IMG/VR virus record: IMGVR_UViG_3300046492_000081
Origin: a virus
Direction: 5' to 3' (one strand)
DNA length: 41,883 nucleotides
Shown here piece by piece: positions 739 to 39,388 of this stretch (its first letter is position 1; every line of letters starts with the position of its first letter). Made by a program: the position numbers and the translations under genes. The notes beneath the pieces are model-generated. The model was not told the origin of the DNA. It searched no databases and saw only the letters and a program-made list of their open reading frames with translations.

Positions 739-755
739 CTAGGGAGTCGAATGCC
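739..755 (-). promoter_or_regulatory. Phage promoter-like motif, copy 2
   Basis: GGCATTCGACTCCCTAG in gene sense, with the ATG at 728 beginning 17 nt after TTCGAC. Confidence 0.55.
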
Positions 756-778
756 ACTTACGGATTTTCGGAGGTGAC
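754..778. repeat. SD/anti-SD palindrome, copy a (imperfect)
   Basis: CCACTTACG GATTTT CGGAGGTGAC; abuts promoter motif copy 2. Confidence 0.7.
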
Positions 779-834
779 AACGCGGGAAGGCCCCGGGTCC
801 TGGGGGAACCTGGGGCCTTCCGGTCTGTGGTGTC

Positions 835-2169
835 TTACAGCGTGGCGGCAATCATGGCCGTGATGGCCTTCTTGGCCTCTTCCAGCTTCTTGCGCGCCGC
901 TTCCTTCGTGGCGTCCGTGGCGTTCTCGAAGTCATCCGGGTTGCCAGTCCCAATGTCCTTGAGGAGCTTGTCAGCCAGCTTCGTCACGCGCTCATCCGGC
1001 GTGGTGGTGTCCGCCGTGGTCTCGCCAGCGCCCTCCCCTTCGCCTTCGCCGCCCTCACCGGCACCCTCACCGGCACCACCAGCGGCCTCAAGCTCCTTGG
1101 CCTTCTGCTTTTCCTGGTAGGCAAGGCGCTTGCGCTCAGACTGACCGATGGTCGACGTGCCGTACGCCTTAGCGACGAACTCAGACGCGGGGACATCTTC
1201 CGGCTTGCCCTCAAGCACCTTCGCCACCCGGGCCCGGCGCTCCGCTGCCTCTTCCGTGTCCTCATCCAGCGACCGAAGCCACGCGGCACGGACGTCAGAG
1301 CGGTAGTCCTGAACCGAGCGCGTCAGCTTCTTGAGCGCCTGCTCATTGTCCCAGGTGTGTTCGAAGCCCTCACCGGCCATCTTGATGAGCGCCGTGCCTG
1401 CCTTCTTGGCAGCGTCCGAAGCAACCATCAGGTCAGGGTTGTCATCCTTGTTGGGGATGCGAGTGACCATGTCGAAGGCGACGGCCGCAACTTCCATGGC
1501 CACGTTGGAAGCCTTGAGGTTCAGGCGGACGCCCTCAGCCAGCTTCTCAGCGCCCATGGCTGCAAGCTCCTGAGTGCCTTCGTACTGGTCCCACGCCTTC
1601 TGAACAACCACGCCCTCAGCCGCCTTCTTGGCAACCTCCTTGGCCTTCGGCTTCTCAACCAGGGTGGCGGCTTCGGCCCACTGGTTGCGCTTCTCCTTCT
1701 TGGCCTTGATGGAGTCCTTGCCGCTCAGCGCGCTGATGATGGTCTCCGTCTCCTCCTTCAACTCCGCCAGCCCCTCAACGTTCTCCGCCTCAGCCAGAGA
1801 CCGGGCACGCTCAATGTTGGCGTCAATCTGCTCAAGGGCAGCCTTGCCATCCTCCGTGTTGACGTCCAGCTTCGCGGCGGTCTTCTCAGCCATGGTCTCT
1901 CCCGTGTTTCCGTTGGTGTTGCTGACAGACGGAACATTAGCAGACTCCGGGGCGTCCGTGTCTGCCACTTCCGAATTTTCGTAGGTGGTCTCTTCGGCAG
2001 CCTTCGCCAGCGCCTTGAGGCAGTTCGCGCAGTTCACGTCACCGCGCACTTCCCGGTAGCCCTCAGCCGCGCGGTTGCCGCCACAGATGGGAAGGGACAT
2101 GTAACCCTGGTGCTTCCGGGCCGCGTGAATCTTGCCGGTCCTGAGCTGAATGTTGACCATGGTGTCCAT
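835..2169 (-). CDS. Hypothetical 444-aa acidic, helical protein with an N-terminal Cys-rich motif; possible nested in-frame isoform from ATG 1893
   Basis: ATG 2169 follows a GAAGGGGCGGGG SD. N-terminus has C..C...CxxC; there is a Gly/Glu/Ala low-complexity tract near the C-terminus. A second strong SD (GGGAGAG) precedes the in-frame ATG at 1893. Confidence 0.75.
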   Translation of the reverse strand: MDTMVNIQLRTGKIHAARKHQGYMSLPICGGNRAAEGYREVRGDVNCANCLKALAKAAEETTYENSEVADTDAPESANVPSVSNTNGNTGETMAEKTAAKLDVNTEDGKAALEQIDANIERARSLAEAENVEGLAELKEETETIISALSGKDSIKAKKEKRNQWAEAATLVEKPKAKEVAKKAAEGVVVQKAWDQYEGTQELAAMGAEKLAEGVRLNLKASNVAMEVAAVAFDMVTRIPNKDDNPDLMVASDAAKKAGTALIKMAGEGFEHTWDNEQALKKLTRSVQDYRSDVRAAWLRSLDEDTEEAAERRARVAKVLEGKPEDVPASEFVAKAYGTSTIGQSERKRLAYQEKQKAKELEAAGGAGEGAGEGGEGEGEGAGETTADTTTPDERVTKLADKLLKDIGTGNPDDFENATDATKEAARKKLEEAKKAITAMIAATL

Positions 2170-2210
2170 GTCCCCGCCCCTTCGTTGTGTGCTTGCGTGA
2201 TCAGTATGGG

Positions 2211-2244
2211 GGGTGTCGGGACCTGGTTGCAAGTCCCGACACCC
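2211..2244 (-). terminator. 12-bp GC stem-loop without a U tail (attenuator or RNA-stability hairpin candidate)
   Basis: GGGTGTCGGGAC-N10-GTCCCGACACCC, immediately after palindrome b. Confidence 0.35.
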
Positions 2245-2265
2245 TACGGATTTTCGGAGGTGGTC
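2240..2265. repeat. SD/anti-SD palindrome, copy b (imperfect)
   Basis: CACCCTACG GATTTT CGGAGGTGGTC; overlaps the stop codon of 2264..2689. Confidence 0.7.
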
Positions 2266-2689
2266 AGGCGGCTTCGTTCCAACGCCGGTTCAGCGCCCAG
2301 TCAGAGAACACAGCGCCAACGTGGTACTGCCCGTACGAAGAGCCCTTGCCGTCGCTCACCTGAATGTACGCCGTGCCGTGCGTGTTGGTCCTGACCTCAA
2401 CGGTCAGCCCGAACTCATACGCCTGAGCCACAACCGCTGCCAGGCGCTCAGCCGGTACGTCCCGGTACTCAAGGCCCGAAGGACCACCCCCGCGCGCCGT
2501 GTAGACCTCACCCAGGTCAACCGTGACCTTGCCCATGTCAGTGCCCTTTCCGTGGAAGGCTGCCCAGCACTCAGCGGACTTGAGCGCCATGCCAGCCGTG
2601 TAGTAGCCCGGGGTGGCGAACAGGATGCGGTCACCTTCGCGGACCTGACCGAAGTGCTTGCCGCTGTTCTCCGTGACCGTGATGTTCAT
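2264..2689 (-). CDS. Hypothetical 141-aa protein
   Basis: ATG 2689 with an AAGGAG SD 9 nt upstream. GC3-rich. Confidence 0.65.
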   Translation of the reverse strand: MNITVTENSGKHFGQVREGDRILFATPGYYTAGMALKSAECWAAFHGKGTDMGKVTVDLGEVYTARGGGPSGLEYRDVPAERLAAVVAQAYEFGLTVEVRTNTHGTAYIQVSDGKGSSYGQYHVGAVFSDWALNRRWNEAA

Positions 2690-2757: not shown

Positions 2758-2783
2758 CCACCTACGATTTTTCGGAGGTGACC
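2758..2783. repeat. SD/anti-SD palindrome, copy c
   Basis: CCACCTACG ATTTTT CGGAGGTGAC. Confidence 0.7.
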
Positions 2784-3433: not shown

Positions 3434-3450
3434 TGAGTGAGTCGAATGCC
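3431..3450 (-). promoter_or_regulatory. Phage promoter-like motif, copy 3
   Basis: GGCATTCGACTCACTCACTC in gene sense; overlaps the stop codon of 3450..3638. Confidence 0.55.
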
Positions 3451-3639: not shown

Positions 3640-3664
3640 GACCACCTCCGAAAAATCGTATGTA
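3640..3664. repeat. SD/anti-SD palindrome, copy d (degenerate anti-SD arm; the SD arm serves as the RBS of 3450..3638)
   Basis: GACCACCTCCG AAAAAT CGTATGTA on the plus strand. Confidence 0.65.
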
Positions 3665-4735: not shown

Positions 4736-4786
4736 GGTTTTCCCTTCGATAGAAGACAGTCCCCCAGTAGTAACTAGGGAGTGGAA

Positions 4787-4814
4787 AGCCCCCGGGACCA
4801 GGTCCACGGGGGCT
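4787..4814 (-). terminator. GC-rich hairpin plus UUUCC tail between the tail genes and the lysis cassette
   Basis: AGCCCCCG...CGGGGGCT with an inner GGACC/GGTCC pairing. Confidence 0.45.
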
Positions 4815-4815
4815 A

Positions 4816-4840
4816 TCACTTACGGATTTTCGGAAGTGCC
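4816..4840. repeat. SD/anti-SD palindrome, copy e (imperfect)
   Basis: TCACTTACG GATTTT CGGAAGTGCC; touches the stop codon of 4840..5451. Confidence 0.7.
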
Positions 4841-9422: not shown

Positions 9423-9460
9423 GGGGTGACCACCTCCGGATTTTCGGAAGTGGCCACCCC
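9423..9460. repeat. SD/anti-SD palindrome, copy f (extended stem of about 17 bp)
   Basis: GGGGTGACCACCTCCG GATTTT CGGAAGTGGCCACCCC. Confidence 0.75.
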
Positions 9461-13388: not shown

Positions 13389-13416
13389 AGTCACCTCCGA
13401 AAAACCGGAGGTGGTC
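13389..13416. repeat. SD/anti-SD palindrome, copy g
   Basis: AGTCACCTCCG AAAAAC CGGAGGTGGTC. Confidence 0.75.
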
Positions 13417-16653: not shown

Positions 16654-16680
16654 GGTCACCTCCGAAAAACCGGAGGTGGT
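16654..16680. repeat. SD/anti-SD palindrome, copy h
   Basis: GGTCACCTCCG AAAAAC CGGAGGTGGT; touches the scaffold stop codon. Confidence 0.75.
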
Positions 16681-20391: not shown

Positions 20392-20416
20392 GCACCTACG
20401 GATTTTCGGAAGTGGT
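20392..20416. repeat. SD/anti-SD palindrome, copy i (imperfect)
   Basis: GCACCTACG GATTTT CGGAAGTGGT; touches the TerL stop codon. Confidence 0.7.
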
Positions 20417-23418: not shown

Positions 23419-23445
23419 GGTCACCTCCGAAAATCCGTAGGTGCC
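23419..23445. repeat. SD/anti-SD palindrome, copy j (the SD arm is the RBS of the HNH gene)
   Basis: GGTCACCTCCG AAAATC CGTAGGTGCC. Confidence 0.7.
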
Positions 23446-23522: not shown

Positions 23523-23526
23523 GAAG

Positions 23527-23907: not shown

Positions 23908-24016
23908 TTGAGGGTTACTCGCCGCTCACTTTGCTTGTGACTAGCAAGCCAGTGTGAGCCGGTTTCACCCAGGGTGCTTATCGTCGGTCCGGTCAGGGAC
24001 CTATTGTGAGCACCAG

Positions 24017-24101
24017 TGCCGCATCAAGGATTTGAACCAAGGACTTCCCCTCACCCATGGGCCCATGGTGGGGGCGCTCTTCCAGACTGAGCTAATGCGG
24101 C
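24017..24101 (-). pseudogene. Degenerate tRNA-like element (85 nt) with an aberrant anticodon arm
   Basis: The 7-bp acceptor (GCCGCAT/ATGCGGC) and D-arm are perfect. The anticodon arm is replaced by a 28-nt hairpin around CCATGGGCCCATGG. The T-stem has two U-U mismatches. Confidence 0.55.
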
Positions 24102-24104
24102 AAG

Positions 24105-24178
24105 CGCTTCGTACCGGATTCGAACCGGTGACCTTCGCCTTGACAAGGCGCTGCCCTAAGCCACTAGGCCAACGAAGC
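24105..24178 (-). tRNA. tRNA-Asp (anticodon GUC)
   Basis: Acceptor GCTTCGT/ACGAAGC, anticodon loop TTGTCAA, T-arm ACCGG-TTCGAAT-CCGGT. Confidence 0.8.
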
Positions 24179-24309
24179 AAGCGGCTTCGCCTTGCAACCC
24201 GGGGAGAGAAGCCAGGGAAGGCGAAGCCATGTGAGGGGCAGGGTCCATCTGTCCGCCGGACCTTCGAGTCAGTTCTACGTGCGCGGGAAACCCCTGCCCT
24301 CAAGATGTA

Positions 24310-24327
24310 TCTAGTGAGTCGAATGCC
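24310..24327 (-). promoter_or_regulatory. Phage promoter-like motif, copy 4, about 130 nt upstream of the tRNA array and late operon
   Basis: GGCATTCGACTCACTAGA in gene sense. Confidence 0.55.
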
Positions 24328-24357
24328 AACGCGCCGGGGCCTGATCCTGGGGCGCTG

Positions 24358-24448
24358 TGTAGGAATGTAGGAAGTGAGTGAGGTCTCTGAATCCCTATAG
24401 AAACCCTTATGGATTATGAAGAGTGATACAGAAACTACATTCCTACAT
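24358..24448. repeat. 91-bp inverted-repeat regulatory cassette B; paralogue of 277-367
   Basis: Same 13-bp arms and the same 91-bp span. The cores align without gaps. Confidence 0.8.
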
Positions 24449-24515
24449 TTATGCAGGTCAGATGGGGTGTTAGAAGCCTGGCACTCAGCCCCCTCATGCA
24501 CGCTGAACGCACGAA

Positions 24516-24547
24516 GGGCGGGCACCAGCCGAAGCCAGCACCCGCCC
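24516..24547 (-). terminator. Strand-specific terminator after the int operon (14-bp stem with G-U pairs, UUCG loop)
   Basis: Minus-sense RNA GGGCGGGUGCUGGC-UUCG-GCUGGUGCCCGCCC followed by UUCGUGCGUU. The four wobble pairs would be C-A mismatches on the other strand. Confidence 0.6.
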
Positions 24548-24559
24548 CAGTGACTCAGA

Positions 24560-24769
24560 TCACTCAGCCGTCAGATACCGCACAGCCCGAACGGCCCTCT
24601 TGAGCCCTTCCAGACCGCCCAGCACGTCTACGCACTCTTGGCACGTGTCGCACAGTCCCCCGTCTTCCTGCCCAATGCGGATGCCGCAGACAGCGCACTT
24701 GTACTTACGCATGCCAGCCCGGTACGCCCGTGCCTCAGCGGCAAGCTCCTCATTCGTCTTGTCTCTCAT
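24560..24769 (-). CDS. Small 69-aa Zn-ribbon protein downstream of int
   Basis: CxxC...CxxC motif. ATG 24769 follows a GGAGTGGTGGG SD. Confidence 0.6.
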   Translation of the reverse strand: MRDKTNEELAAEARAYRAGMRKYKCAVCGIRIGQEDGGLCDTCQECVDVLGGLEGLKRAVRAVRYLTAE

Positions 24770-24820
24770 CCCACCACTCCGCTTGTCATGCACACACTGT
24801 CACCGTCTGATTGCACTGAG

Positions 24821-26389
24821 CTACATACGGGCTTCGGCTTCCACCTCATCATTCACGGCCATGAGCGCATCAGCCGCCGCATCAAAGAACGGGTCACGGA
24901 TCTCAAGCGATACCCGGCGTTCGTCCAGCGTGCGCCAACCCCCAGCGGTACCGGCCAAGACATCCAGCCGTGCCCCAGCGTTGGTCAGCATCTTCCGCCT
25001 TCCAGCCGTGTCCGCCTTGACCCACTTTTCATCGTAGGTGCGGCCGGTCCTGATCTCTTCCATGCGGGCTTCAACCTTCTCCCTGGTCTCAAGCTCCGCC
25101 AGCCGGGCGTCAAGGGCGTCAGCGCGGGTCTGCCACGCCTTCTGAGCGGCGCTGGACTTCTGCCGCCCCTGTTGCGCCTGGTGGGCTTCGAACTCCGCCA
25201 GAGTGGCGTCAATCTCCGGCTGTGGGTCATACCCGGGAATGATGCGCGTGGACGTGATCTCAAGCCCACCCAGGATGCGAAGGAACTCACGGGTCACGTA
25301 CTCATCAACCCAGTCAGCGCGGATGTTCATGGGGTGCTTGCAGACCACGCCCCGGGACGCTGCACCACAACGGTACGTAGGCCGCTGACCGGGCTTGCCC
25401 TCTTGCCGGTTCAGGTACATCTTGCTGCCGCACGAAGAGCAGTGAGCAATGCCGAACAGGAGCGCGTTGGTGTCCTTCCTGACTGAGCTTTTCACGGTCC
25501 GCTCATCCAGAAGGGCACCCACAGCATCAAACTCAGCGCGGGTAAGGATGGGCTCACGGGTGGCCATTACCGGCACACCTTCGCTGTCACGCACGGGGAG
25601 TTTGCCGCTGAGCTTCCAGCCGATCAGCGTTTCAGAGCGCATGATGCGCGTAATGGTGGTGGCATTCCATCCCGTCGGCTTCTTGACTTCCCGCCCCTTG
25701 AATGCGGACCAGTGGTCAGACGGGGAGGGGACGTTATCGGCATTCAGCGCGAACACAATTGCATTCGCTGTCTCGCCTTCAAGAAGCGCCTTGATGATGC
25801 GCTCAATGACCTTTACGGCGTCCGGGTCCTGAACCAGGGTCCAGCCGCCACCTTCGAGCGGGGCAGGCATGTAGCCGTACGGCGCACGGGAACCACGCCA
25901 GCGGTAAGCCATCATGCGCATTGCCGCCTGAGCGCCGATCACGCGTTCCCGGATGGAGTGGGCTTCCATCTGAGCCGCGAAGGCGAAGAGCGTGACCATG
26001 AGCTGTGACATGGGGTCCAGCGGGTTGCGGAAGTCCAGCACCAGGCGACCGCCGGGCCCCTCAGCGAAGACGATCATCTTCCGTTCGTCGCGTGCCCACT
26101 TCGCAAGCTCATGCATGTCATCCATGGACCGGATGGCACGGTCAAACCGCCAGAACACCAGGGCGTCAAAGTCATCCGGGCGACGAAGCCAGGCACCCAG
26201 CTCCGGGCGCTGGAAGGGTGTTGTCTTGCTTGCGCTGACTCCTAGGTCAACGGCCTTCCGGTCGGCAAGGTCAATGCCCAGTGCCCCGGCTGCCCCGTCG
26301 TTGGCGTTCTGCTGACGTTCAGGGCTGGTGGTCTCGTCAGTCAGTACGGACAGACGAAGGCAGGACACGCCCCGGAGGTGAGAGTTCAT
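24821..26389 (-). CDS. int: Large serine recombinase (Bxb1-type integrase)
   Basis: N-terminal catalytic motif LRLSVLTDETTSPERQ. Resolvase core, recombinase domain, Cys4 zinc ribbon (CSSCGSK...CGAASRGVVC) and a C-terminal coiled coil. Confidence 0.9.
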   Translation of the reverse strand: MNSHLRGVSCLRLSVLTDETTSPERQQNANDGAAGALGIDLADRKAVDLGVSASKTTPFQRPELGAWLRRPDDFDALVFWRFDRAIRSMDDMHELAKWARDERKMIVFAEGPGGRLVLDFRNPLDPMSQLMVTLFAFAAQMEAHSIRERVIGAQAAMRMMAYRWRGSRAPYGYMPAPLEGGGWTLVQDPDAVKVIERIIKALLEGETANAIVFALNADNVPSPSDHWSAFKGREVKKPTGWNATTITRIMRSETLIGWKLSGKLPVRDSEGVPVMATREPILTRAEFDAVGALLDERTVKSSVRKDTNALLFGIAHCSSCGSKMYLNRQEGKPGQRPTYRCGAASRGVVCKHPMNIRADWVDEYVTREFLRILGGLEITSTRIIPGYDPQPEIDATLAEFEAHQAQQGRQKSSAAQKAWQTRADALDARLAELETREKVEARMEEIRTGRTYDEKWVKADTAGRRKMLTNAGARLDVLAGTAGGWRTLDERRVSLEIRDPFFDAAADALMAVNDEVEAEARM

Positions 26390-26397
26390 AGGGCGTG

Positions 26398-26414
26398 GTG
26401 AGTGAGTCGAATGC
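26398..26414 (-). promoter_or_regulatory. Phage promoter-like motif, copy 5, 16 nt upstream of the int ATG with no SD
   Basis: GCATTCGACTCACTCAC-CACGCCCT-ATG. Confidence 0.5.
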
Positions 26415-26462
26415 TTCGTGCCGCTGACCAGGGCTTTTGCCATCATCGCGGGGGCTCCCTAG

Positions 26463-26512
26463 AACACCTAGTTGGGAGCTTTCGGAGATCCGAAAGCTAC
26501 TGACTTACAGTT
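26463..26512. other. Candidate attP core for the serine integrase
   Basis: Perfect 10-bp inverted repeat AGCTTTCGGA-GA-TCCGAAAGCT (26477-26498), about 90 bp upstream of int in a non-coding gap. Confidence 0.45.
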
Positions 26513-26619
26513 CTAGCACATAGCCCCTGGTCAGGGCAGGGTTTCAGACCAACGGCAGGAGCACCAGGCCCCCGAATCAGCGCCCCCACGGGTGCCCCCG
26601 GCTACCTACCCTTGACGCC

Positions 26620-26949
26620 ATGACTACTGAGCCCAGCAACCTTCGCCGCCTTCCATGGAACAGCCCGGAAGGGACAGCGGACTACGCGCCACACGGCCTT
26701 GTGGACCACATTGCCGACCGCACGGAAGCGGACATCATCGGACGGGCCCGGAACGATGCTGCATACGCCCTGGTGATGTCTCAGCGCCCCGGGGTGTCGA
26801 CGGAAGAACTCTGCCGCCTGGTGTCGAAGTTGGCGGGGCACGTGAGGGACGTAACCAGCGTGGCGGACATGCGGGAAGAGCGCTTGAACTCCCCTGCCGC
26901 GAAAGCCCTTGAAGGTGCCTTGCGCGCTGCACTGGGACAGCCCGGATAG
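26620..26949 (+). CDS. Hypothetical 109-aa protein; the only plus-strand gene
   Basis: GC3-rich ORF. The antisense 26602..27045 ORF looks like Arg-rich shadow sequence. There is no SD, so the transcript may be leaderless. Followed by a terminator. Confidence 0.6.
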   Translation: MTTEPSNLRRLPWNSPEGTADYAPHGLVDHIADRTEADIIGRARNDAAYALVMSQRPGVSTEELCRLVSKLAGHVRDVTSVADMREERLNSPAAKALEGALRAALGQPG

Positions 26950-26971
26950 GCCAGCCGGTAGGGTCAGCAGG

Positions 26972-27002
26972 AGCCCCAGGGACACAGCCCGTCCCTGGGG
27001 CT
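26972..27002. terminator. Bidirectional 12-bp stem-loop between convergent genes
   Basis: AGCCCCAGGGAC-N7-GTCCCTGGGGCT. Confidence 0.6.
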
Positions 27003-27115
27003 TCTGTATGCCCGCCTGAGCGCCTACGGGAAGAGCCCCGACCAACCGCCGGGGGAAGCGGTCAGACGGGGCTCAGGAACCCACCTACGGGCGCTGATGG
27101 CCAGTGGTGGGCTGG

Positions 27116-27343
27116 TCACTCCTTCCGGGTAACGCGTGCATGGTCCGTGACGACACGGCGGAACAGATCATGACCCGTCCGGCCGGTATGGCGAAGGCAC
27201 CAGTCCTGTGCGGCTTCCTGGTCATCCGTGGGCCCTGATGTCCCCTCACAGTCCGGCTTGCCGACACAGAACACTTCGAAGACCCATCCACCCTCAGCCA
27301 CGTGCCGGATGGAGTGATCAACGAACCGCATGACCGTGCTCAC
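27116..27343 (-). CDS. Hypothetical 75-aa protein
   Basis: ATGA overlap with the upstream gene. Cys/His-containing. Confidence 0.6.
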   Translation of the reverse strand: MSTVMRFVDHSIRHVAEGGWVFEVFCVGKPDCEGTSGPTDDQEAAQDWCLRHTGRTGHDLFRRVVTDHARVTRKE

Positions 27344-27660
27344 GCTGCCCCCTCAGTGAGCCCAGCGTGCAACGCCACCTGTTCCGCTACGGCCTTGTGG
27401 AGACCAACCCAGGTGCCCGCATCAACGGTCTGGGCAAGCTCCTTGGCCGGTTCGCCGTGCTTCTCCTTGAGCCTTTCCACGGGCCAAGGGGCGGTTGCGT
27501 ACCAGTGAGCCGCGTTCTCCCGGGACGGCTTTGAGCAGAAGGAAGCCCACCCGGCAGGCAGGGGCGTGGTAACAGAGATCTCCGCTTGCCCCTGGTCCCG
27601 GGTGGGCTCAGAGTCAAGCGACCTTCTCAGCGCGCGTGTGGCGCTGTCCGCTTGGGTCAT
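27340..27660 (-). CDS. Hypothetical 106-aa protein
   Basis: GC3-rich ORF in an operon context. Confidence 0.6.
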   Translation of the reverse strand: MTQADSATRALRRSLDSEPTRDQGQAEISVTTPLPAGWASFCSKPSRENAAHWYATAPWPVERLKEKHGEPAKELAQTVDAGTWVGLHKAVAEQVALHAGLTEGAA

Positions 27661-27723
27661 TTTGCTGTTGTCCTAACGCGTGGTCAGGTCCGGCCCATTA
27701 CCGGACCAATGTGACCAGGGTAA

Positions 27724-27939
27724 CTAGCCGTCAGCGACCGTGTCAGTACCTTCGTCAACCACATAAACCGTGTGCCCCACCTGTACGGAGTCCGCCCCAC
27801 CTTGCAGCGCTGCCGCCCCGGCTGACGAAGCCTCAGAAAGTTCATCCTTCGCGAAGTGGTACCAGCCCTGTGCGCTGTCCAGTAGGTCAGTCACCAGCTC
27901 TTCGCGCGTGCCGCTCTTCCGCATGGGTTCAAGTGCCAT
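27724..27939 (-). CDS. Hypothetical 71-aa acidic protein
   Basis: GC3-rich ORF. Confidence 0.55.
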   Translation of the reverse strand: MALEPMRKSGTREELVTDLLDSAQGWYHFAKDELSEASSAGAAALQGGADSVQVGHTVYVVDEGTDTVADG

Positions 27940-27962
27940 GGCGGAAGGCTACCCAGACAGCG

Positions 27963-28439
27963 TCAGGCGGCTTCTGTGACCACGGGAGGACTGGGGAGCG
28001 GGACCAGGTCCGGCACCACCTTCACGGGGCCCACACGGGCGCTGAACCGCTTCGTATGGAACAGCTCACCGGTCTTGACGTAGTAGTCCCTGATGGCTTC
28101 ACGCCAGCCGCACATGTACTCACCCACGGGCACGTACTCACGGCGGACCGGGCACCACTCCCACTCACGGATTCCCAGCACCATCCCCGTTGAGCGACCA
28201 CGGGCGTAGATGCGGAACCGCTCCCCCAGCTTCTGACTGGCAATCACCCGCGCGACAGTCCGGCCGTATGTCTGCACCAGGGCGCGGCACTCCCCCGCGT
28301 TATAGGCGTACTCCTGAGCCAGCGTTCCCGGGTATCCGGGCAGCTCACCCCATGACCAGCCGCCAGCGGGAAGAGGTCTGGACACACGCAAAAACAGGTG
28401 AACATGCGCAATGGGTCCAAGATCAACAAACGTGATCAT
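27963..28439 (-). CDS. Hypothetical 158-aa protein
   Basis: ATG 28439 follows a GAGGGGGG SD. The ORF-track N-terminal extension runs into lower-GC non-coding DNA. Confidence 0.6.
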   Translation of the reverse strand: MITFVDLGPIAHVHLFLRVSRPLPAGGWSWGELPGYPGTLAQEYAYNAGECRALVQTYGRTVARVIASQKLGERFRIYARGRSTGMVLGIREWEWCPVRREYVPVGEYMCGWREAIRDYYVKTGELFHTKRFSARVGPVKVVPDLVPLPSPPVVTEAA

Positions 28440-28680
28440 GAACGCAACCCCCCTCAGTCCGGACACGGTGTGTGTGTTCACACATGCTAAGCGGAGTTGT
28501 TGAATCCACAAGTTCAATATGAAGCCTTGACGGAGACCTGTGACCATTCCGTGAAGATTCGTAATGATCAAAACCCCAGCACACCCGCTGACTCCTCAGA
28601 CTCGCACAGGCGTTCGAAGTCATGCAAATGGATTCGTTTGCTCACCATACGAACCAGTCATGCCCATGCCATTACGGGGA
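28440..28680 (-). promoter_or_regulatory. Lower-GC intergenic region downstream of a terminator; likely promoter/operator region for the 27116-28439 cassette
   Basis: About 240 bp with no credible ORF. Contains the TGTGTG-AA-CACACA palindrome about 40 nt upstream of the ATG and TTGAA-N8-TTCAA. No phage-type promoter motif is present. Confidence 0.35.
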
Positions 28681-28690
28681 CATAAAGAAA

Positions 28691-28710
28691 GGCCCCCCTT
28701 CCGGGGGGCC
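28691..28710 (-). terminator. Rho-independent terminator (minus strand)
   Basis: GGCCCCCC-GGAA-GGGGGGCC in minus sense, followed by UUUCUUUAU. Confidence 0.75.
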
Positions 28711-28727
28711 CTTCTCATTCTCAGGTA

Positions 28728-28952
28728 CTAGCTCATGCGCCCGTAGAAGTCCGTGCACGGCTGGCAAGCGTTGATCTTGCCGACCGGGCCACAGTCCAGA
28801 ACGTTCACAGCGGGAGTGCCCTGAGTCTGGTGCATGAGGCTGTACCGGCACACAGCCCGTGCCGCTACCTCCTTCGCGTACTCAGCGGCTTCCCCGTGGT
28901 CCTTGCCCAGCGCGCGCCCGGTCTCGAAGGCTGCCGCGTAGATGCTGGTCAT
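28728..28952 (-). CDS. Hypothetical 74-aa protein
   Basis: ATG 28952 follows a GAAGGGAAA SD. Confidence 0.6.
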   Translation of the reverse strand: MTSIYAAAFETGRALGKDHGEAAEYAKEVAARAVCRYSLMHQTQGTPAVNVLDCGPVGKINACQPCTDFYGRMS

Positions 28953-29009
28953 TCTGTTTCCCTTCGTTGTGGTGGGGCACCAGCTAAGCACCAGCGCCCC
29001 ACCCATGGC

Positions 29010-29037
29010 AACCACTTACGGATTTTCGGAGGTGGTC
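29010..29037. repeat. SD/anti-SD palindrome, copy k
   Basis: AACCACTTACG GATTTT CGGAGGTGGTC. Followed in gene sense by the GGTGGGGC...GCCCCACC hairpin (28971-29003). Confidence 0.7.
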
Positions 29038-29230
29038 AGTCCTCCCCATCCTCCTGCCGCCATGCGGGGACAATGCCCGACATGGAAGCCCACAGCCAGC
29101 GCGCCTCAGTCTCCTGCATGCTGATGGTGATGGGTCCGCGCACCCGGTCAACGGCCATGATCTCAACGGACCGGTCAGGGTGCTCATGCACCGTGAAAAC
29201 CTGAGTGATGTCTAGCTTGATGTGCGGCAT
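29036..29230 (-). CDS. Hypothetical 64-aa protein
   Basis: GC3-rich ORF. Confidence 0.55.
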   Translation of the reverse strand: MPHIKLDITQVFTVHEHPDRSVEIMAVDRVRGPITISMQETEARWLWASMSGIVPAWRQEDGED

Positions 29231-29240
29231 GATCTCTCCC

Positions 29241-29447
29241 CTACGGCTTCAAGGTAACGCGCGGGCCGACTCTATCAGTGTGGGTGTCCGGGCGGTCAAC
29301 CACAGGCTCAGCGGTGACCACGGGGCACATGACCGGGCAGTCATTCAGCGTGGGTGCCTCAGCCGGACTAGCGCTGATCACAGCCGCACTCAGGCAAGCC
29401 GTGCCCCCCACCAGGGCGCTCACTACGATGGCACGAACGTTCATCAC
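29241..29447 (-). CDS. Small secreted or membrane-anchored 68-aa protein
   Basis: Signal-peptide-like N-terminus MMNVRAIVVSALVGGTACLSAAVISA. Confidence 0.55.
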   Translation of the reverse strand: MMNVRAIVVSALVGGTACLSAAVISASPAEAPTLNDCPVMCPVVTAEPVVDRPDTHTDRVGPRVTLKP

Positions 29448-29689
29448 TTAAATCCCCTCTTGACCCATGCAACGCATGCCTGCCACGAACTCTTTCGCTC
29501 TTCGTCTTCCAAGAGCCCAATCTGACAGTCAAGTTGGAGCTTGAGGCCAGCGGCATAGAAGTGAGGAATCCGGATCACCTTACGGACATTGCCCATGGTG
29601 ACAACCTCAATGTGAGCCCACTTGAAGCCCTCTTCTCCGTCCACCAGTTCAACGCTGGCAATCCTCTTGATGGTCTCACTGTGCGCCAT
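29444..29689 (-). CDS. Hypothetical 81-aa protein
   Basis: ATGA overlap with the downstream gene. Confidence 0.55.
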   Translation of the reverse strand: MAHSETIKRIASVELVDGEEGFKWAHIEVVTMGNVRKVIRIPHFYAAGLKLQLDCQIGLLEDEERKSSWQACVAWVKRGFK

Positions 29690-29749
29690 GCTGGCCCCTT
29701 CTCCGGGGGGAGACTGAACAGCCCTCAGTCTCCCCCACCTAGCTAACCG

Positions 29750-29845
29750 TCAGTGCTTGACCCACACGAAGATGTGCGCATGCTTCGGGTTGCCGTCGCA
29801 CGTCTTGCCGTGTGCCTTGCAGCGAAGCTCAGTCAGGTCCGTCAT
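29750..29845 (-). CDS. Possible 31-aa ORF
   Basis: ATG 29845 follows GAAGGGCAAG. 32 codons. Weak support. Confidence 0.25.
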   Translation of the reverse strand: MTDLTELRCKAHGKTCDGNPKHAHIFVWVKH

Positions 29846-29911
29846 CGTCTTGCCCTTCGTCGTTGGTGCCTTACGGGGCTAACTATGCATCTTCGTAGGT
29901 GGCCACGTCCA

Positions 29912-29938
29912 GTCACCTCCGGATTTTCGGAGGTGGTC
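29912..29938. repeat. SD/anti-SD palindrome, copy l (perfect)
   Basis: GTCACCTCCG GATTTT CGGAGGTGGTC. Confidence 0.75.
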
Positions 29939-31694: not shown

Positions 31695-31726
31695 GGGGCC
31701 ACCTCCGAAAATCCGGAGGTGACCCC
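31695..31726. repeat. SD/anti-SD palindrome, copy m (perfect, with extended GGGG/CCCC flanks)
   Basis: GGGGCCACCTCCG AAAATC CGGAGGTGACCCC. Confidence 0.75.
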
Positions 31727-32141: not shown

Positions 32142-32171
32142 CTTCGAAGTGGTGCTAGGGAGTCGAATGCC
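32142..32171 (-). promoter_or_regulatory. Phage promoter-like motif, copy 6 (full 30-nt form)
   Basis: GGCATTCGAC-N12-CTTCGAAG; overlaps the 3' end and stop codon of the HNH gene. Confidence 0.6.
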
Positions 32172-32418: not shown

Positions 32419-33345
32419 TTACTTGCGTCCACCACGGCCAAGGTTGATGGCGGCAGCCTCAGTGAGTTCCTTCGCCTCAACCTCATCCTTGGCAACGGCC
32501 TTGATGTACCGCTTCGCGAACGCCTTGTGACCCTTCACGCGGGCATCACGCGCCGGGATGATGTCCAGACCCAACGCGGCAGCCAGCCCGGGAAGGTCAC
32601 CAGCGTCCCCCGTGCCGTAGCACTGCACATCACCAATGCCGTACGAGAGACGAAGGGCGTTGGCCTGGTTGTCGCTCATGGTGGCAAGGATGGCGTTCAC
32701 AATGGCGTGCTTCTGCCGCCGCTCTTCGCTGGTGATGTCCTCAGCGGTGACCAGGTCATCCGGCACACCCAGGGAAGAGGCAAGCCCCTCAGCCAGGCTG
32801 TAAGACGCCTGGTAGTCCCCCTGAGACACGGAACCGGCAGACGGGCCATCCACGGTCACAGCCGGGGCGTCAAGGCTTGCAGCGCCCTGCCACGCCATCC
32901 GGGCTGCCTGTGCACGGTCCGCGCTGAGTCGACGTCCCTTCGGGGGCACGGTCTGAGCGAACTTCTCGGCAAGGTAGACATCCCCGTCAGCCTTCTCAAG
33001 CATGGACGCGAACACCTTCAAGGCGTCTTCGTCAGCGCCCTGGTTGCGGGCTTCCCGGACCTTGTCCTTGAGCGCGTTCTCAATGGTTGCCCACATGAAC
33101 GCGTAGAAGGCATCCACGGTGTCACCCTCGAAGCGGGGCAGGGCTTCGAACATGGCAAGCGCGCCGTCCTGCCGGAAGTCTTCCCGGAAGTCCTCAAAGC
33201 GCATCCCGTTCTGAGTCATGCGACGGGCGGCAGCGTCAGCCAGCTTCTCAATGCGGCCGGTCATGGCTTCGTTGACAGCCTCAAGCCCGGCAAAGCCGTT
33301 CGTCTGAGCGTCAGCGATCAGGGCAAGGGTCAGGGTCTCGGTCAT
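32419..33345 (-). CDS. ECF-like RNA polymerase sigma factor candidate (308 aa)
   Basis: Region-2-like DFRQDGALAMFEALPRFEGDTVDAFYAFMWATIENALKD. Region-4-like MSDNQANALRLSYGIG...LAAALGLD...ARDARVKGHKAF. ATG 33345 follows a GGAAGGAAA SD. Confidence 0.6.
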   Translation of the reverse strand: MTETLTLALIADAQTNGFAGLEAVNEAMTGRIEKLADAAARRMTQNGMRFEDFREDFRQDGALAMFEALPRFEGDTVDAFYAFMWATIENALKDKVREARNQGADEDALKVFASMLEKADGDVYLAEKFAQTVPPKGRRLSADRAQAARMAWQGAASLDAPAVTVDGPSAGSVSQGDYQASYSLAEGLASSLGVPDDLVTAEDITSEERRQKHAIVNAILATMSDNQANALRLSYGIGDVQCYGTGDAGDLPGLAAALGLDIIPARDARVKGHKAFAKRYIKAVAKDEVEAKELTEAAAINLGRGGRK

Positions 33346-33803: not shown

Positions 33804-33828
33804 CCACCTCCGAAAATCCGGAGGTGAC
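33804..33828. repeat. SD/anti-SD palindrome, copy n (perfect)
   Basis: CCACCTCCG AAAATC CGGAGGTGAC. Confidence 0.75.
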
Positions 33829-35805: not shown

Positions 35806-35836
35806 GGGCCACCTCCGAAAATCCGGAAGTGACCCC
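35806..35836. repeat. SD/anti-SD palindrome, copy o, between promoter copy 8 and the polymerase SD
   Basis: GGGCCACCTCCG AAAATC CGGAAGTGACCCC. Confidence 0.75.
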
Positions 35837-35854: not shown

Positions 35855-38290
35855 TCAGTCCTGAGCGAAGATGCCCGGACCCGTCTTCGAAGTGGCGCTA
35901 GGGAGTCGAATGCCTACCAGGGCCATCCCCTTAGCCGTACGCGTGCGAGTGATGCCGCGCTCTTCCATGGCCCCGTAGAACGCGCGACGGGTCCAACGCT
36001 CCTTGGCAGGCAGGTTCTCAGCCTCACACCAGTCAAGGTAAGCGTTGAACGCTTCGCCACCATCCATGCGGGCAGAGTCATCCGCCACCAGGACACCCGG
36101 GAAGAAACCCGCCAGCGCGTCACTGGTCTCCTTGTACTCCTTCGTGGCAGCGCTGATGCTGGCAGGGTCTTGCAGCCCGTCACGGAACCACTCAACAGCC
36201 CCACGGACAGCCCACGCGGCAATACCCTTCGCTTCGGCTTCCAGCTTCTTGTCAAGGCTGTAGTCCCGCTCATGCGGAGCAAAGAACCGGGTAAAGGGAA
36301 TCATCTTGACGCGTCGCCAGAGACCTTCGTCCTGACCCCGGAACTTCGGCTTATGGTTCGTCGCCAGCATGAGCAGAAACGAAGGCTTGAATTCGAAGAA
36401 CTCTTGCCGAAGGAACCGGGCGGCAATCATGTCCTTGCCCGTGACACGCTTGAGCACAGCCTCAGACATGGGCTTGCCGGACTCACCCTCAGACGCCATC
36501 ACCAGGCGGCTACCGCGCAAGGCGGCAATGTCGTTAGGGATGCCGCCATTCGCCTTCTCTTCGAACGTGGCAAAGGGCGTGGTCTTGCTGATGGTCCGGA
36601 ACACACTGGACAGCGTGTCAGTCAGGACACTCTTGCCGTTCGCACCCTTCCCCCACAGCACACAGAAACACTGCTCATCCGTGTAGCCCGTGATGCCGTA
36701 GCCAATGATGCGCTGCATGTACGGCACAAGGTCAGGGTTGTCCGGGAAGACCTCAGTCATGAACTGTTCCCAGCGGGGGCAGGTGGCAGCCGGGTCATAC
36801 TCGATGTCAAGGCAGTACGTCAACATGTCAGCCTTGTCATGCGCCCGGAGCTTCCCAGTGCGAAGGTTCACGGTGCCGTTGCGGAAGCTCAGAAGGTGCG
36901 GCCGGTTGTCGAAGTCAGACGCCTCAACGTAGACCGTGGGGACCGAACGAAGCTCAGTCATCAGGTCATTGATGCGCGTGGTCATGGTGAACCCACGGGC
37001 TTCCTTGACCTTGCCAGCCAGCACCAGGGCAGCGCCCATGCGGTGAATCTCCTGACGCACCTTGACCTCAGAACGGGACCAGGTACGGCCGTTCCACACG
37101 TAGAAACCCAGACCAGGCGCGAACTTGATACGGCCATCGGACCAGGCAACCAGCGCGTGAGCGTTCATGGCGTCCGTGTCGCCGTAGCGCTCAAGGAGAC
37201 CAGCCAGGATGCGGGCAGCCTCATTGCCCTGGTCCCGGCTGACAATGTCCGCCCCGGTCGCTTCGCTCAACTCTTCGCTGACGGCTTCCCGTTGGGCCTC
37301 TTCCGGCTTCGCTACCGGCTTCGCAGACTTCACGGCCTTGTGCAGAGCCAGCGCAAACGCCATGGGGGCAGACTCGCGCCACTCAGTCAGGTCCGTCTTC
37401 GGCCCCAGCTTCGGAATGGGCAGCGCGTAGACCGGGATGCCGTACGCCTTGAGCCCTTCGGCAAGCGCCATGTTGAAGCCCTGCCCGGCAGAGTCCACAT
37501 CACCACACGCAATGACCTGTGAGCCCTTGAGACCAGCGGCAAGCTCAGCCAGAAGGTCAGGGTTGGACACCAGGGCAGCGCCCCGGACCATCACCACGTC
37601 ATACCCCACGGAAACCGCTGTAAGCCCGTCTCCGGGCCCCTCAGTGACCAGGGTGACCCCGTAGCCGCCCTGACCCCGGAACACGCCGTACGGGGACCAG
37701 CGGAAGCCTTCCGGGTTGCGCAGAGACAGCCAACGCCCCGGGCACTCCCCCGTGATGTCACGCCCCTGCAAGCCACGCGGCATACCGACGAAGTCACACA
37801 GCGGAACAGTCACCCGGGGGAACGCCTTGAAGGAGCGCGTCAGGTACGGGAAGGGGTCATTCACATCCGGCCCGTCATACCCGATACCCAGTTCATACGC
37901 CGTGTCAGCGTCCATGCCGAAGCGGTCAGCAAGGTAGTCCCGGGCACGCTCCTGCCACTCCCCCTCTTCGGGCAGCCGGTCACGCGCGTCATCAACGTAG
38001 CCAGCAAGGGCGGCAGTCTGAGCAACACCCACAATGGCGGGCTTCTCCTTCGGGACCGTAGCGCCCTCACCATCAGCGTTGAACAGGTCCGGCCACGTCA
38101 GGCCAGCCGCCTTGACCACGTCACCCGTGGGGCAGCCGACACGGCACGTGATGCGGACCTTGTTGTCATCCCCACGCCAGATACGTAGCGACGGGTCAGA
38201 GTCTCCGTGCGACGGGCACAGGGTGATGTACCCGCCGTCTTCGTGCTCACTCACACCTTCGAAGTGGTCCAGCAACTCAACGAACAGCAC
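35855..38290 (-). CDS. Bifunctional DNA primase/helicase (CHC2 Zn-finger, Toprim and SF3/D5-type NTPase)
   Basis: CPSHGDSDPS...CRVGC, Toprim acidic motifs, Walker A GKGANGKS. GTG start at 38290 follows an AGGAAGG SD. Confidence 0.85.
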   Translation of the reverse strand: MLFVELLDHFEGVSEHEDGGYITLCPSHGDSDPSLRIWRGDDNKVRITCRVGCPTGDVVKAAGLTWPDLFNADGEGATVPKEKPAIVGVAQTAALAGYVDDARDRLPEEGEWQERARDYLADRFGMDADTAYELGIGYDGPDVNDPFPYLTRSFKAFPRVTVPLCDFVGMPRGLQGRDITGECPGRWLSLRNPEGFRWSPYGVFRGQGGYGVTLVTEGPGDGLTAVSVGYDVVMVRGAALVSNPDLLAELAAGLKGSQVIACGDVDSAGQGFNMALAEGLKAYGIPVYALPIPKLGPKTDLTEWRESAPMAFALALHKAVKSAKPVAKPEEAQREAVSEELSEATGADIVSRDQGNEAARILAGLLERYGDTDAMNAHALVAWSDGRIKFAPGLGFYVWNGRTWSRSEVKVRQEIHRMGAALVLAGKVKEARGFTMTTRINDLMTELRSVPTVYVEASDFDNRPHLLSFRNGTVNLRTGKLRAHDKADMLTYCLDIEYDPAATCPRWEQFMTEVFPDNPDLVPYMQRIIGYGITGYTDEQCFCVLWGKGANGKSVLTDTLSSVFRTISKTTPFATFEEKANGGIPNDIAALRGSRLVMASEGESGKPMSEAVLKRVTGKDMIAARFLRQEFFEFKPSFLLMLATNHKPKFRGQDEGLWRRVKMIPFTRFFAPHERDYSLDKKLEAEAKGIAAWAVRGAVEWFRDGLQDPASISAATKEYKETSDALAGFFPGVLVADDSARMDGGEAFNAYLDWCEAENLPAKERWTRRAFYGAMEERGITRTRTAKGMALVGIRLPSATSKTGPGIFAQD
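35885..35914 (-). promoter_or_regulatory. Phage promoter-like motif, copy 8 (full 30-nt form), inside the 3' end of the primase gene
   Basis: GGCATTCGAC-N12-CTTCGAAG. Confidence 0.6.
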
Positions 38291-38309
38291 TGTTCAGCCT
38301 TCCTGTTGT

Positions 38310-38339
38310 CTTCGAAGGGATGTGAGTGAGTCGAATGCC
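38310..38339 (-). promoter_or_regulatory. Phage promoter-like motif, copy 9 (full 30-nt form), upstream of the primase gene
   Basis: GGCATTCGAC-N12-CTTCGAAG, then 9 nt to the SD. Confidence 0.6.
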
Positions 38340-38345
38340 TGCCCC

Positions 38346-38792
38346 TCAGAACGGGTAGCCGGAACCGGCTGCAAGCCCGGGGTCAGGGCCAAACGTCAGC
38401 GACCACTCAGCAAGGGTCTTCGCGCCCTTGCTCAGGTTGCATCGCTGGCACGCGGGCACAATGTTGGACTCAACGTCAGCCCCTCCCTTGCTCAGGGGCT
38501 CAACGTGGTCAAGGTGCGTGGCGTGGTCACCGCAGTAGGCACACGCGTACTTCCAGCGGGCAAGGATGGCTGTGCGGCTGTACGCCACATGTTCCACCCC
38601 GTAGGACTCTGCCCGGCGCTTGTGCGTGATCTCATGGCGCTTGTCAGGGCTCAGCCGGGCGTAATAGCCCTTGATGTGCTGACGCTGACGGTTGCGGCGG
38701 CATGAGGCACAGGCGCTAGACGGCTTCTTGGCCTTCCCAGCTAGGAAAGACTCAGCGGGCTTCCCCCGCCCGCATAGTCGACAGACTTTCAC
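38346..38792 (-). CDS. HNH endonuclease (148 aa)
   Basis: CAYCGDHATHLDHVEPLSKGG...NIVPACQRCNLSK; paralogous to 32155..32418. Confidence 0.85.
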   Translation of the reverse strand: MKVCRLCGRGKPAESFLAGKAKKPSSACASCRRNRQRQHIKGYYARLSPDKRHEITHKRRAESYGVEHVAYSRTAILARWKYACAYCGDHATHLDHVEPLSKGGADVESNIVPACQRCNLSKGAKTLAEWSLTFGPDPGLAAGSGYPF

Positions 38793-38908
38793 CAGACCCC
38801 CAATGCGAAGCCAAGGAACCAGCCCAGTGCAAACCCCAGGGGCTGAATGAGAATGCAGACGAACAGTTGAAGCGGACGGACACGAACCGGCTTACGCCTG
38901 TGGCTCAT
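38789..38908 (-). CDS. Possible 39-aa membrane peptide, below the ORF-track cutoff
   Basis: MSHRRKPVRVRPLQLFVCILIQPLGFALGWFLGFALGVW. The start lies inside the upstream gene's 3' end. GTGA overlap with the HNH start. Confidence 0.35.
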   Translation of the reverse strand: MSHRRKPVRVRPLQLFVCILIQPLGFALGWFLGFALGVW

Positions 38909-39074
38909 GAACCCACCTGACATCAGCGCCACGGGTCACAGCCACGAAGAGGGCATCCGCGTAACGGGCCCAATCCTTACGGGAGTTGACACCCGGGCGA
39001 AGCCAAATGGTCACCCCTTCGGACGCTGCCCGCACGTCCCCAATGGCAGGGGCAGAGTCAGGAGACAGGATCAC
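38892..39074 (-). CDS. Hypothetical 60-aa protein
   Basis: GTG start at 39074 uses the SD arm of palindrome p. GTGA overlap with the upstream stop codon. Confidence 0.55.
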   Translation of the reverse strand: MILSPDSAPAIGDVRAASEGVTIWLRPGVNSRKDWARYADALFVAVTRGADVRWVHEPQA

Positions 39075-39388
39075 TCGCCCACCTCCGGATTTTCGGAAGT
39101 GACCTCAACGAAGTTCGGAGTCACCAGGCGCACATGTTCCGTGGTAATCCACTGAGCGGCAGCCGTCTTGCGCTTCACAAAGCCGGACTCAATCCCAGTG
39201 GGCTGAACCTTGAGCACGGGCACCAACACAGCGCCTACGCCCTCAACTTGAGCCTGTTTGGCAGTGGCCTCAAGGACCACAGCGTCAGCCATCCTGACCC
39301 GGTTCCCCTGACGTGCCGAGTAGGCCACCAGGTCCCCGGGGTGTAGTTCGTTGCCCGCGTAATCCGTGACAACGCCACGCTTAGCCAT
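39071..39388 (-). CDS. Hypothetical 105-aa protein
   Basis: TAGGAGG SD. The C-terminal codons read through palindrome p. Confidence 0.6.
   Translation of the reverse strand: MAKRGVVTDYAGNELHPGDLVAYSARQGNRVRMADAVVLEATAKQAQVEGVGAVLVPVLKVQPTGIESGFVKRKTAAAQWITTEHVRLVTPNFVEVTSENPEVGE
39078..39104. repeat. SD/anti-SD palindrome, copy p (inside the coding 3' end; its SD arm is the RBS of the next gene)
   Basis: CCCACCTCCG GATTTT CGGAAGTGACC. Confidence 0.75.

Follow-up and report, generated by a model that had tools for sequence, protein, structure and literature searches.

The DNA analysed here, IMG/VR virus record IMGVR_UViG_3300046492_000081 (41,883 nt; "the window" below means this whole stretch), carries 17 dispersed copies of a 22-base palindrome and, at 835-2169 on the minus strand, a gene whose product resembles the repressor c of phage phiC31. 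Its first 127 bases (1-127) recur exactly at 41757-41883 (100% identity), so the window is a circularly assembled genome with 41,756 bp of unique sequence. It is a complete phiC31-family Streptomyces phage. The nearest database relative is Streptomyces phage Rowa, with 84% identity across the structural genes; its proteins, searched against the window with tblastn, show full synteny in reverse orientation, and the genes of the window therefore lie essentially all on the minus strand. phiC31, Rowa and the window share a gene order of deoxynucleoside monophosphate (dNMP) kinase, repressor, exonuclease, primase, polymerase, sigma-like factor, thyX, deoxycytidylate (dCMP) deaminase, integrase, tRNAs and HNH gene. 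Several IMG/VR metagenome contigs hold near-identical fragments of the window (99.2-99.8%). A literature search on Rowa or its palindromes found no paper.

Results

Number and placement of the palindromes

The whole window was scanned for CACCTCCG-N6-CGGAGGTG with up to three mismatches, and 17 matches were returned, compared with a mean of 0.65 and a maximum of 3 in 100 shuffled sequences (Table 1). An earlier note on this DNA had listed 16 copies and had read them primarily as mRNA hairpins in which a perfect Shine-Dalgarno (SD) sequence is masked by a mimic of the anti-SD sequence of 16S rRNA. All 16 of its copies (16/16) were recovered where it had placed them, but the list was incomplete, as it had overlooked the copy at 1966-1987 inside the repressor open reading frame (ORF). 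What the note had said of their placement also held. Fifteen of the 17 copies lie outside genes (binomial P ~1e-12, with annotated sequence making up 88.4% of the genome), and six begin 1-5 nt past the upstream stop codon on the coding minus strand (minus-strand starts 20414, 16678, 13413, 4838, 2262 and 29034). The spacer occurs in both orientations relative to transcription, AAAATC-like in 10 copies and GATTTT-like in 7, and a second, GC-rich hairpin follows four copies (2241, 4817, 13392 and 29013). The integrase-proximal region of ~5.5 kb (window 23444-29012) has no palindrome, and the same is true in Rowa and phiC31. A second, degenerate palindrome (CACCTACG-AAGATG-CATAGTTA, ~29879-29902) lies 11 nt downstream of the copy at 29914-29935 and is kept in Rowa at 35524.

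Table 1. Palindromes, promoter-like motifs and selected genes of the window, with palindromes of related phages and examples from host chromosomes (RBS, ribosome-binding site)
Feature	Position	Strand	Remarks
Palindrome	755..776	.	Between repressor gene and next gene; Rowa orthologue at 21733
Palindrome	1966..1987	.	Within repressor ORF; encodes TYENSEV; 73 nt upstream of in-frame ATG 1893
Palindrome	2241..2262	.	93 nt before repressor ATG (2169); 1 nt past preceding stop; GC-rich hairpin next
Palindrome	2759..2780	.	Between dNMP kinase and gp25-like genes; hairpin and T-run before it
Palindrome	3643..3664	.	Degenerate, TACATACG arm; GGAGGTG arm is RBS of gp23-like gene (ATG 3638)
Palindrome	4817..4838	.	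1 nt past gp20-like stop; then hairpin, then motif 4774-4790(-) upstream of lysin gene
Palindrome	9431..9452	.	Tip of long hairpin; between tape-measure region and gp17-like gene
Palindrome	13392..13413	.	Perfect; 5 nt past major tail protein stop; then 12-bp GC-rich hairpin
Palindrome	16657..16678	.	Perfect; 1 nt past scaffold stop; upstream of major capsid gene with own SD
Palindrome	20393..20414	.	1 nt past large terminase stop; upstream of portal gene with own SD
Palindrome	23422..23443	.	7 nt past last tRNA; GGAGGTG arm is RBS of HNH gene (ATG 23416)
Palindrome	29013..29034	.	1 nt past gp53-like stop; hairpin next
Palindrome	29914..29935	.	Perfect; after dCMP deaminase gene
Palindrome	31700..31721	.	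Perfect; upstream of thyX; 5 extra outer pairs, T-rich tail
Palindrome	33805..33826	.	Perfect; after DNA polymerase gene, start of ~530-nt region upstream of sigma-like gene
Palindrome	35810..35831	.	Between primase and polymerase genes; 5 extra outer pairs, TTTTG tail
Palindrome	39080..39101	.	Inside gp36-like 3' end; GGAGGTG arm is RBS of gp37-like gene; Rowa 26353
Repressor gene	835..2169	-	Homologue of phiC31 c, 444 residues; proposed palindrome-binding protein
Sigma-factor-like gene	32419..33345	-	phiC31 gp12 counterpart; Pfam Sigma70_r2; 78% identity to Rowa gp42
GGCATTCGACTCCCTAG motif	256-272, 739-755, 3434-3450, 4774-4790, 24311-24327, 32155-32171	-	
GGCATTCGACTCCCTAG motif, remaining copies	35898-35914, 38323-38339, 40699-40715, 40755-40771, 41104-41120	-	
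Palindrome of phiC31, phiBT1 and Lilbooboo			CCTACTCACGTGAGTAGG
Palindrome of TG1			GCACTCACGTGAGTGY
Palindrome of Heather			CCTRCTCTYAAGAGTRG
Palindrome of Nesbitt			CACCACCTCACGTGAGGTGGTG
Palindrome of Dubu			GGGAGAGGTYCTCTCCGG
Host 22-mers, examples	L068:4629-4650, L025:6920-6941, L041:2621-2642		Among loci L020-L113

The repressor gene

The product of 835-2169(-), which the earlier note had named as a candidate repressor, is a homologue of repressor c. Residues 104-442 match Pfam PF25746 ("Streptomyces phage repressor protein c") with E=3.7e-72, the protein is 52% identical to the annotated "immunity repressor" of Rowa, and its similarity to phiC31 c is weak but significant. The position of the gene, between the dNMP kinase and exonuclease genes, also matches that of phiC31 c. 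A search of the PDB for homologues of the repressor found no solved structure.

Within the gene, an in-frame ATG with an SD sequence lies at 1893 (GETMAEKT), is conserved in Rowa and coincides with the start of the Pfam domain. A start there would yield a short repressor of 352 residues matching that domain; phiC31 is arranged likewise, and its nested repressor isoforms are made from internal promoters. The palindrome inside the ORF lies at +183, beside a 41-residue indel relative to Rowa, whose own in-gene copy (20512) encodes TSENPDV. The part upstream of the internal ATG has a Cys-containing N-terminal pattern, PxCGGNRAxEGY...C..C, at residues ~5-54 (window 2008-2157, minus strand), and the N-terminal 57 residues of the long form are 44% identical to the N terminus of phiC31 c. 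This region looks like a small Cys-containing module that would be missing from the short isoform. The repressor gene is closely followed, on its downstream side, by a small Cys-rich ORF (507-728, minus strand).

Half-site conservation and polarity

The palindrome has an invariant skeleton, CAC.T.CG-N6-CG.A.GTG, in which N6 is A/T-rich. Within each half-site, variation is concentrated at position 4 (C or T) and position 6 (C or A), with positions 1-3, 5, 7 and 8 nearly invariant. Sixteen of the 17 palindrome positions are shared between the window and Rowa, and between the two genomes identity is 91% in the arms, 72% in the spacers and 42% in the 20-nt flanks. The earlier description of the arms as perfect SD sequences fits some of them and fails for others, since 15 of the 34 half-sites in the window differ from CACCTCCG. 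The window form of the outer hexamer is ACCT[C/A]C; literal ACCTAC is found in 29% of half-sites of the window plus Rowa.

The two arms of a site do not change together. Over both genomes, symmetry is seen in 7 of 34 sites, compared with 11.8 expected when half-sites are shuffled, exactly one half is deviant in 23 of 34, and the arms disagree at 37 places, slightly above the 31.0 +/- 3.0 expected for shuffled half-sites. Stem-disrupting mismatches (C.A, C.U or A.G) are present in 9 of the 17 window copies and in 13 of the 17 Rowa copies, and the predicted stability of the stem ranges across copies from -0.8 to -14.7 kcal/mol. Because the arms vary independently within a genome, with mismatches, hairpin pairing is not the conserved property; selection acts on the half-sites as DNA, without selection for pairing between arms.

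The spacer is reversed at 6 of the 16 sites orthologous between the window and Rowa, and these flips, together with the 10:7 split of orientations in the window, speak against a promoter, a terminator or an RBS, because those would have a fixed polarity. The sites do have a polarity built into themselves. With each site written as ...CG-GATTTT-CG..., 19 of the 20 cases of A at position 6 (CACCTACG) are in the left half, on the GGAT side (Fisher P=0.017 in the window and 9e-5 in Rowa). In two relatives from IMG/VR (L119 and L121) the two halves of every site differ at position 4. Unlike half-sites appear to be preferred in the operators.

Palindromes across the phiC31 family

A scan of related phages for the motif had been proposed in the earlier note. 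Nine phages that encode a c homologue (phiC31, phiBT1, Lilbooboo, TG1, Heather, Nesbitt, Dubu, Rowa and the window) were searched de novo for palindromes, and each has a lineage-specific one in 9-17 copies (Table 1), which in Rowa and the window is the motif described here. The phiC31 repressor is reported to bind conserved inverted repeats (CIRs); the two were reportedly described in work by Ingham et al. in 1994 and by Wilson et al. in 1995. The phiC31 genome holds no copy of the window motif but has 16 copies of its own palindrome, CTACTCACGTGAGTAG, which we take to be the CIR operators bound by c. The palindrome of the window does not match this core in sequence, and only the outer hexamer and the spacing are common to both. 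Identity is not to be expected between immunity types, however, because the palindromes of TG1, Heather, Nesbitt and Dubu differ as well.

What the lineages share is the layout. Palindromes follow terL, the tape-measure region, the primase gene and the polymerase gene, precede the lysin gene and the terminal HNH gene, and also lie around the capsid gene. This arrangement holds in the nine phages except Dubu and, less completely, Nesbitt; the site after terL is present in all family members examined except these two. Upstream of c, a palindrome lies at 65-102 nt in six relatives, at 94 nt in Rowa and at 93 nt in the window; Dubu has none upstream of c. In the phages with long c genes another lies within c (phiC31 +499, phiBT1 +184, TG1 +457, Rowa +302 and window +183). 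The site upstream of the repressor gene in Nesbitt (L014, 19873) is a hybrid of a Nesbitt-type half (CACCTCAC) and a phiC31-type half (GTGAGTAG).

We also examined twelve IMG/VR loci with relatives of the repressor (39-62% identity to that of the window). Six of the twelve carry the skeleton CAC.T.CG-N6-CG.A.GTG in at least four copies, with positions 4 and 6 varying and arms that are mostly CACATACG, CACGTACG, CGTATGTG or CGTACGTG. Among these six, a palindrome is found ~90-105 nt upstream of the c match in L119, L121 and L129 and ~300 nt upstream in L120 and L128. At three of the remaining loci the palindrome is CACCTAC-N8-GTAGGTG or CACCTAC-N7-GTAGGTG. Over about 20 phiC31-family genomes, the palindrome sequence shifts as the repressor diverges.

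Promoter-like motifs

A second dispersed motif, GGCATTCGACTCCCTAG, occurs in 11 copies (0.14 expected), all on the minus, coding strand, and Rowa also has 11. It resembles a repeated phiC31 sequence, GGGTTGCCGACTCCCTTAC, which presumably represents the early promoters read with the sigma-like protein gp12. By analogy, GGCATTCGACTCCCTAG is likely the counterpart of the phiC31 early-promoter consensus, and the sigma-like product of 32419-33345 is presumed to read it. The palindrome at 755-776 shares one base with the motif at 739-755(-), the palindrome at 4817-4838 lies 27 nt upstream of the motif at 4774-4790(-), and that at 35810-35831 lies 67 nt downstream of the motif at 35898-35914(-).

Other features of the genome

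The ends of the Rowa genome map at window 22655/22656, which is probably the physical end (cos) of the phage. The capsid protease ORF (17274-18944, minus strand), directly after the portal gene, encodes 556 residues compared with 324 in Rowa, with ~229 additional residues at the N terminus. A large serine integrase (24821-26446, minus strand) has Resolvase, Recombinase and Zn-ribbon domains; no similarity was detected between it and the Rowa integrase. A six-tRNA gene cluster lies at 23451-24178(-). A 106-bp direct repeat, 85% identical between its copies, occurs at 275-380, upstream of the exonuclease gene, and at 24356-24461, beside the tRNA cluster; both copies sit just downstream of a promoter-like motif, and the repeat also matches Rowa 41012-41116.

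Discussion

We think it probable, at roughly 0.85, that the palindromes are a CIR-type operator set and that the product of 835-2169(-), a phiC31-type repressor, would be the protein that binds them. The earlier note had held such operators as its alternative, and this alternative is supported: a c homologue is encoded, the palindromes occupy the same junctions as CIRs, and the palindrome changes with divergence of the repressor.

If the palindromes are operators, the repressor, probably mainly in its short form from ATG 1893, would bind each site as a symmetric oligomer and would read the skeleton CAC.T.CG-(A/T-rich N6)-CG.A.GTG. Repressor synthesis could be autoregulated through the sites 93 nt upstream of c and at +183 inside it, and the site abutting the early-promoter-like motif at 739-755 could block an early promoter. 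The other junction sites, among both early and late (virion structural) genes and often beside or inside terminator-like hairpins, may silence the prophage. At such sites, away from promoters, we infer that bound repressor would act as a roadblock or as a nucleus for a larger repressor-DNA complex.

Several observations weigh against this proposal. First, the presumed link from protein to site is drawn from homology, position and co-variation. Second, only 3 of the 17 palindromes lie within 70 nt of a promoter-like motif. Third, the outer stems at two pairs of orthologous sites (9431 in the window and 12716 in Rowa; 35810 and 29633) differ in sequence yet stay paired, which suggests an added RNA or terminator role at those sites. 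Finally, exact 22-mers are found, singly, at ~67 high-GC actinobacterial genome loci, nearly all of them in Streptomyces, and the operator model does not explain them.

The host copies, found by a search that required perfect palindrome arms, usually tip a long hairpin whose outer stems vary between species. They lie directly after tRNA-Arg(CCU) at no fewer than 45 loci, after an aspC-like gene at 7 and after tRNA-Pro(CGG) at 2. At one locus (L068) the hairpin borders a pSAM2-type integrative element, with a tyrosine integrase gene and a RepSA gene beyond it, and the same conserved downstream flank with repeated CTGACATC motifs recurs at most of the remaining tRNA-Arg(CCU) loci. BLAST of the host tRNA-Arg hairpin against plasmids and phages gave matches to its tRNA portion alone, such as that with the core of the phage attachment site (attP) of RP3. 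A metagenome sample of 112 flanks past the tRNA-Arg(CCU) 3' end was dominated by other genera, and the sole Streptomyces-like flank among them carries the palindrome with a 7-nt spacer. Another 28 exact 22-mer matches fall in unrelated low-GC phyla, so hairpins of the GGAGGTG-CACCTCC kind are evidently common in bacteria. In the window itself, a palindrome stands 7 nt past the final tRNA gene, an order similar to that of the host loci, where a hairpin comes after a tRNA.

These host copies leave the reading of the phage copies unchanged, as the pattern of degeneracy and the link to c are specific to the latter. It is conceivable, but unlikely, that the palindrome is a signal shared by phage and host and so more than a private operator. 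Were both sets bound by a prophage repressor or a host protein, the lysogen might thereby adjust a rare-codon tRNA or a neighbouring integrative element. Phage sites in long, co-varying hairpins could serve as DNA operators and RNA terminators together.

Other explanations could, in principle, account for a dispersed intergenic palindrome. One keeps sequence-specific binding but assigns it to a protein other than c, either another phage protein or a host factor. The exact copies at 60 or more actinobacterial chromosomal loci, nearly all in Streptomyces, would fit a host factor, the Cys-rich ORF at 507-728(-), just downstream of c, is a candidate from the phage, and the evidence tying c to the palindrome is indirect. 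But the palindrome changes with the repressor lineage among ~20 phages of a single host genus, so that a phage-encoded reader fits better than a conserved host factor, the sites flank and enter c in each lineage with a long c gene, and c of phiC31 reportedly binds the CIRs. We therefore regard a different reader as quite improbable.

Alternatively, the copies could be primarily terminators or hairpins that stabilise or process mRNA, with no sequence-specific protein involved. They do lie at the 3' ends of genes, often 1 nt past the stop codon, and a minority have the expected architecture. Copies 9431, 31700 and 35810 have extended stems and four T in the next 8 nt (the first, with 12 extra outer pairs, folds over 54 nt at -41.5 kcal/mol), and in Rowa three or more copies, among them 12716, 25691 and 29633, likewise tip longer hairpins with T-rich tails; these hairpins span 13-20 bp with co-varying outer stems. 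Palindromes of phiC31, phiBT1 and TG1 often have comparable hairpin flanks, and the host 22-mers are hairpin tips after tRNA and protein genes. The other 14 copies in the window, however, lack such an extension and U-tract, about half of the copies have broken stems, and some lie within c or before promoters. Scans for promoters and terminators showed no enrichment and flagged none of the copies, and an Rfam search of the palindromes returned no family, only tRNAs. Moreover, a plain hairpin needs no fixed sequence, whereas here the skeleton and the A/T-rich centre are conserved and the flanks are not. As a general explanation this seems very unlikely. A minority of the proposed operators is built into terminator-like hairpins, an arrangement that the operator model can accommodate and from which it may gain.

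The explanation that the earlier note favoured, translational control at the RNA level with an anti-SD mimic hiding the strong SD of the downstream gene, now has little probability. As the note had proposed, the next gene does take its RBS from the palindrome at three copies (39080, 23422 and 3643), with the GGAGGTG arm 5 nt from the GTG at 39074, 5 nt from the ATG at 23416 and 4 nt from the ATG at 3638; these starts align with residue 1 of their Rowa homologues. An intact stem of 8-9 bp is possible in 8 of the 17 copies (-11 to -15 kcal/mol). At 39080 translation of the upstream ORF runs through the stem, and the GTG of the gp37-like gene overlaps the gp36-like stop codon, so that local coupling is plausible there. 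But the other 14 copies are away from start codons, only those three placing an SD arm 4-10 nt upstream of one, and the downstream genes carry SD sequences of their own. The disruptive mismatches described above are not offset, as no compensated complementarity between arms was found within the window or Rowa. The palindrome is also identical on both strands, and its spacer is randomly oriented.

Nor is the likeness itself stable. The GGAGG/CCTCC core depends on half-site positions 4 and 6, which vary freely, and the likeness is for that reason incidental. Four of the six relatives that keep the 22-bp skeleton (L119, L121, L128 and L129) have CACATACG, CGTATGTG and CGTACGTG arms; SD-like bases are absent from most of them, and the SD core is not kept. 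The phiC31-type palindromes at equivalent junctions are not SD-like either. The anti-SD arm adds no independent observation, since any palindrome that contains GGAGGTG must have one. The idea of masking hairpins on mRNA lacks support as a general function, because pairing is not preserved, because only 3 of 17 copies stand at a start codon and because relatives lack the SD likeness. The resemblance is most likely incidental, with at most local effects at the three RBS copies.

Last, a role as module-boundary sequences that promote recombination between related phages was set aside as having next to no probability: the palindromes do lie at gene-module junctions, blastn blocks between the window and Rowa end at sites 1988, 2262, 23445 and 29034 to 29935, and spacer flips at orthologous sites suggest exchange between copies, but conserved islands within diverged spacers would end alignment blocks in any case, homologous recombination would have little length to work with in 22 bp, and the copies around c and the half-site degeneracy would go unexplained.

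If the palindromes are operators, Rowa-like Streptomyces phages and their metagenomic relatives would gain an immunity circuit made up of a repressor, 17 operators and 11 early-promoter-like motifs, and Rowa and the phage of the window are predicted to be homo-immune. Across ~20 phiC31-family genomes, change is seen in the central 8 bp and at two positions of the half-site, and the outer hexamers and the spacing are kept. This series would offer natural material for studying how specificity changes in a repressor without a solved structure, and it could be a source of orthogonal repressor/operator pairs for Streptomyces engineering. It also carries a caution, in that two degenerate positions in a protein-binding palindrome can produce a striking resemblance to SD and anti-SD sequences.

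Among known systems, intrinsic terminators and repetitive extragenic palindromic (REP) elements resemble the sites in following stop codons and in the subset that forms long GC-rich hairpins with T-rich tails. They differ in that most copies here have neither a stable stem nor a U-tract, and the conserved skeleton and A/T-rich centre point to sequence-specific recognition. In SD-sequestering hairpins, such as translational operators and RNA thermometers, a GGAGG arm can pair with a CCUCC arm, as it can here; in the window, however, pairing is not conserved, the distance to a start codon is not fixed, and the SD bases vary.

Stoperators are asymmetric sites of 13-14 bp, with a fixed orientation to transcription, that are read by an unrelated small repressor. 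The sites of the window, by contrast, are palindromic, occur in either orientation (10:7) and are tied to a homologue of repressor c. The likeness to the stoperators of cluster A mycobacteriophages and R4-like phages lies in placement, mostly in short intergenic gaps away from promoters. R4-like Streptomyces phages carry stoperators as many repressor sites genome-wide, which are thought to halt transcription through the prophage (PMC10276819).

The closest counterparts are the CIRs of phiC31. Both systems pair a PF25746 repressor homologue with ~16-17 scattered, mainly intergenic palindromes at equivalent junctions, one of them upstream of c and one within c ahead of an internal in-frame start, and in both some palindromes cap terminator-like hairpins. 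The distance from the dyad to the outer hexamer ACCT[A/C]C is also equal in the two, the phiC31 site being ACCTAC-TCACGTGA-GTAGGT with an 8-bp gap. The central 8 bp of the window, in contrast, are GAAAATCC/GGATTTTC rather than TCACGTGA, forming an A/T-rich, asymmetric centre with a built-in polarity, and the half-site A of phiC31 is mostly C, which produces the GGAGG look. The proposed control system is one already known in related phages, and it is the central sequence and the built-in asymmetry that differ here.

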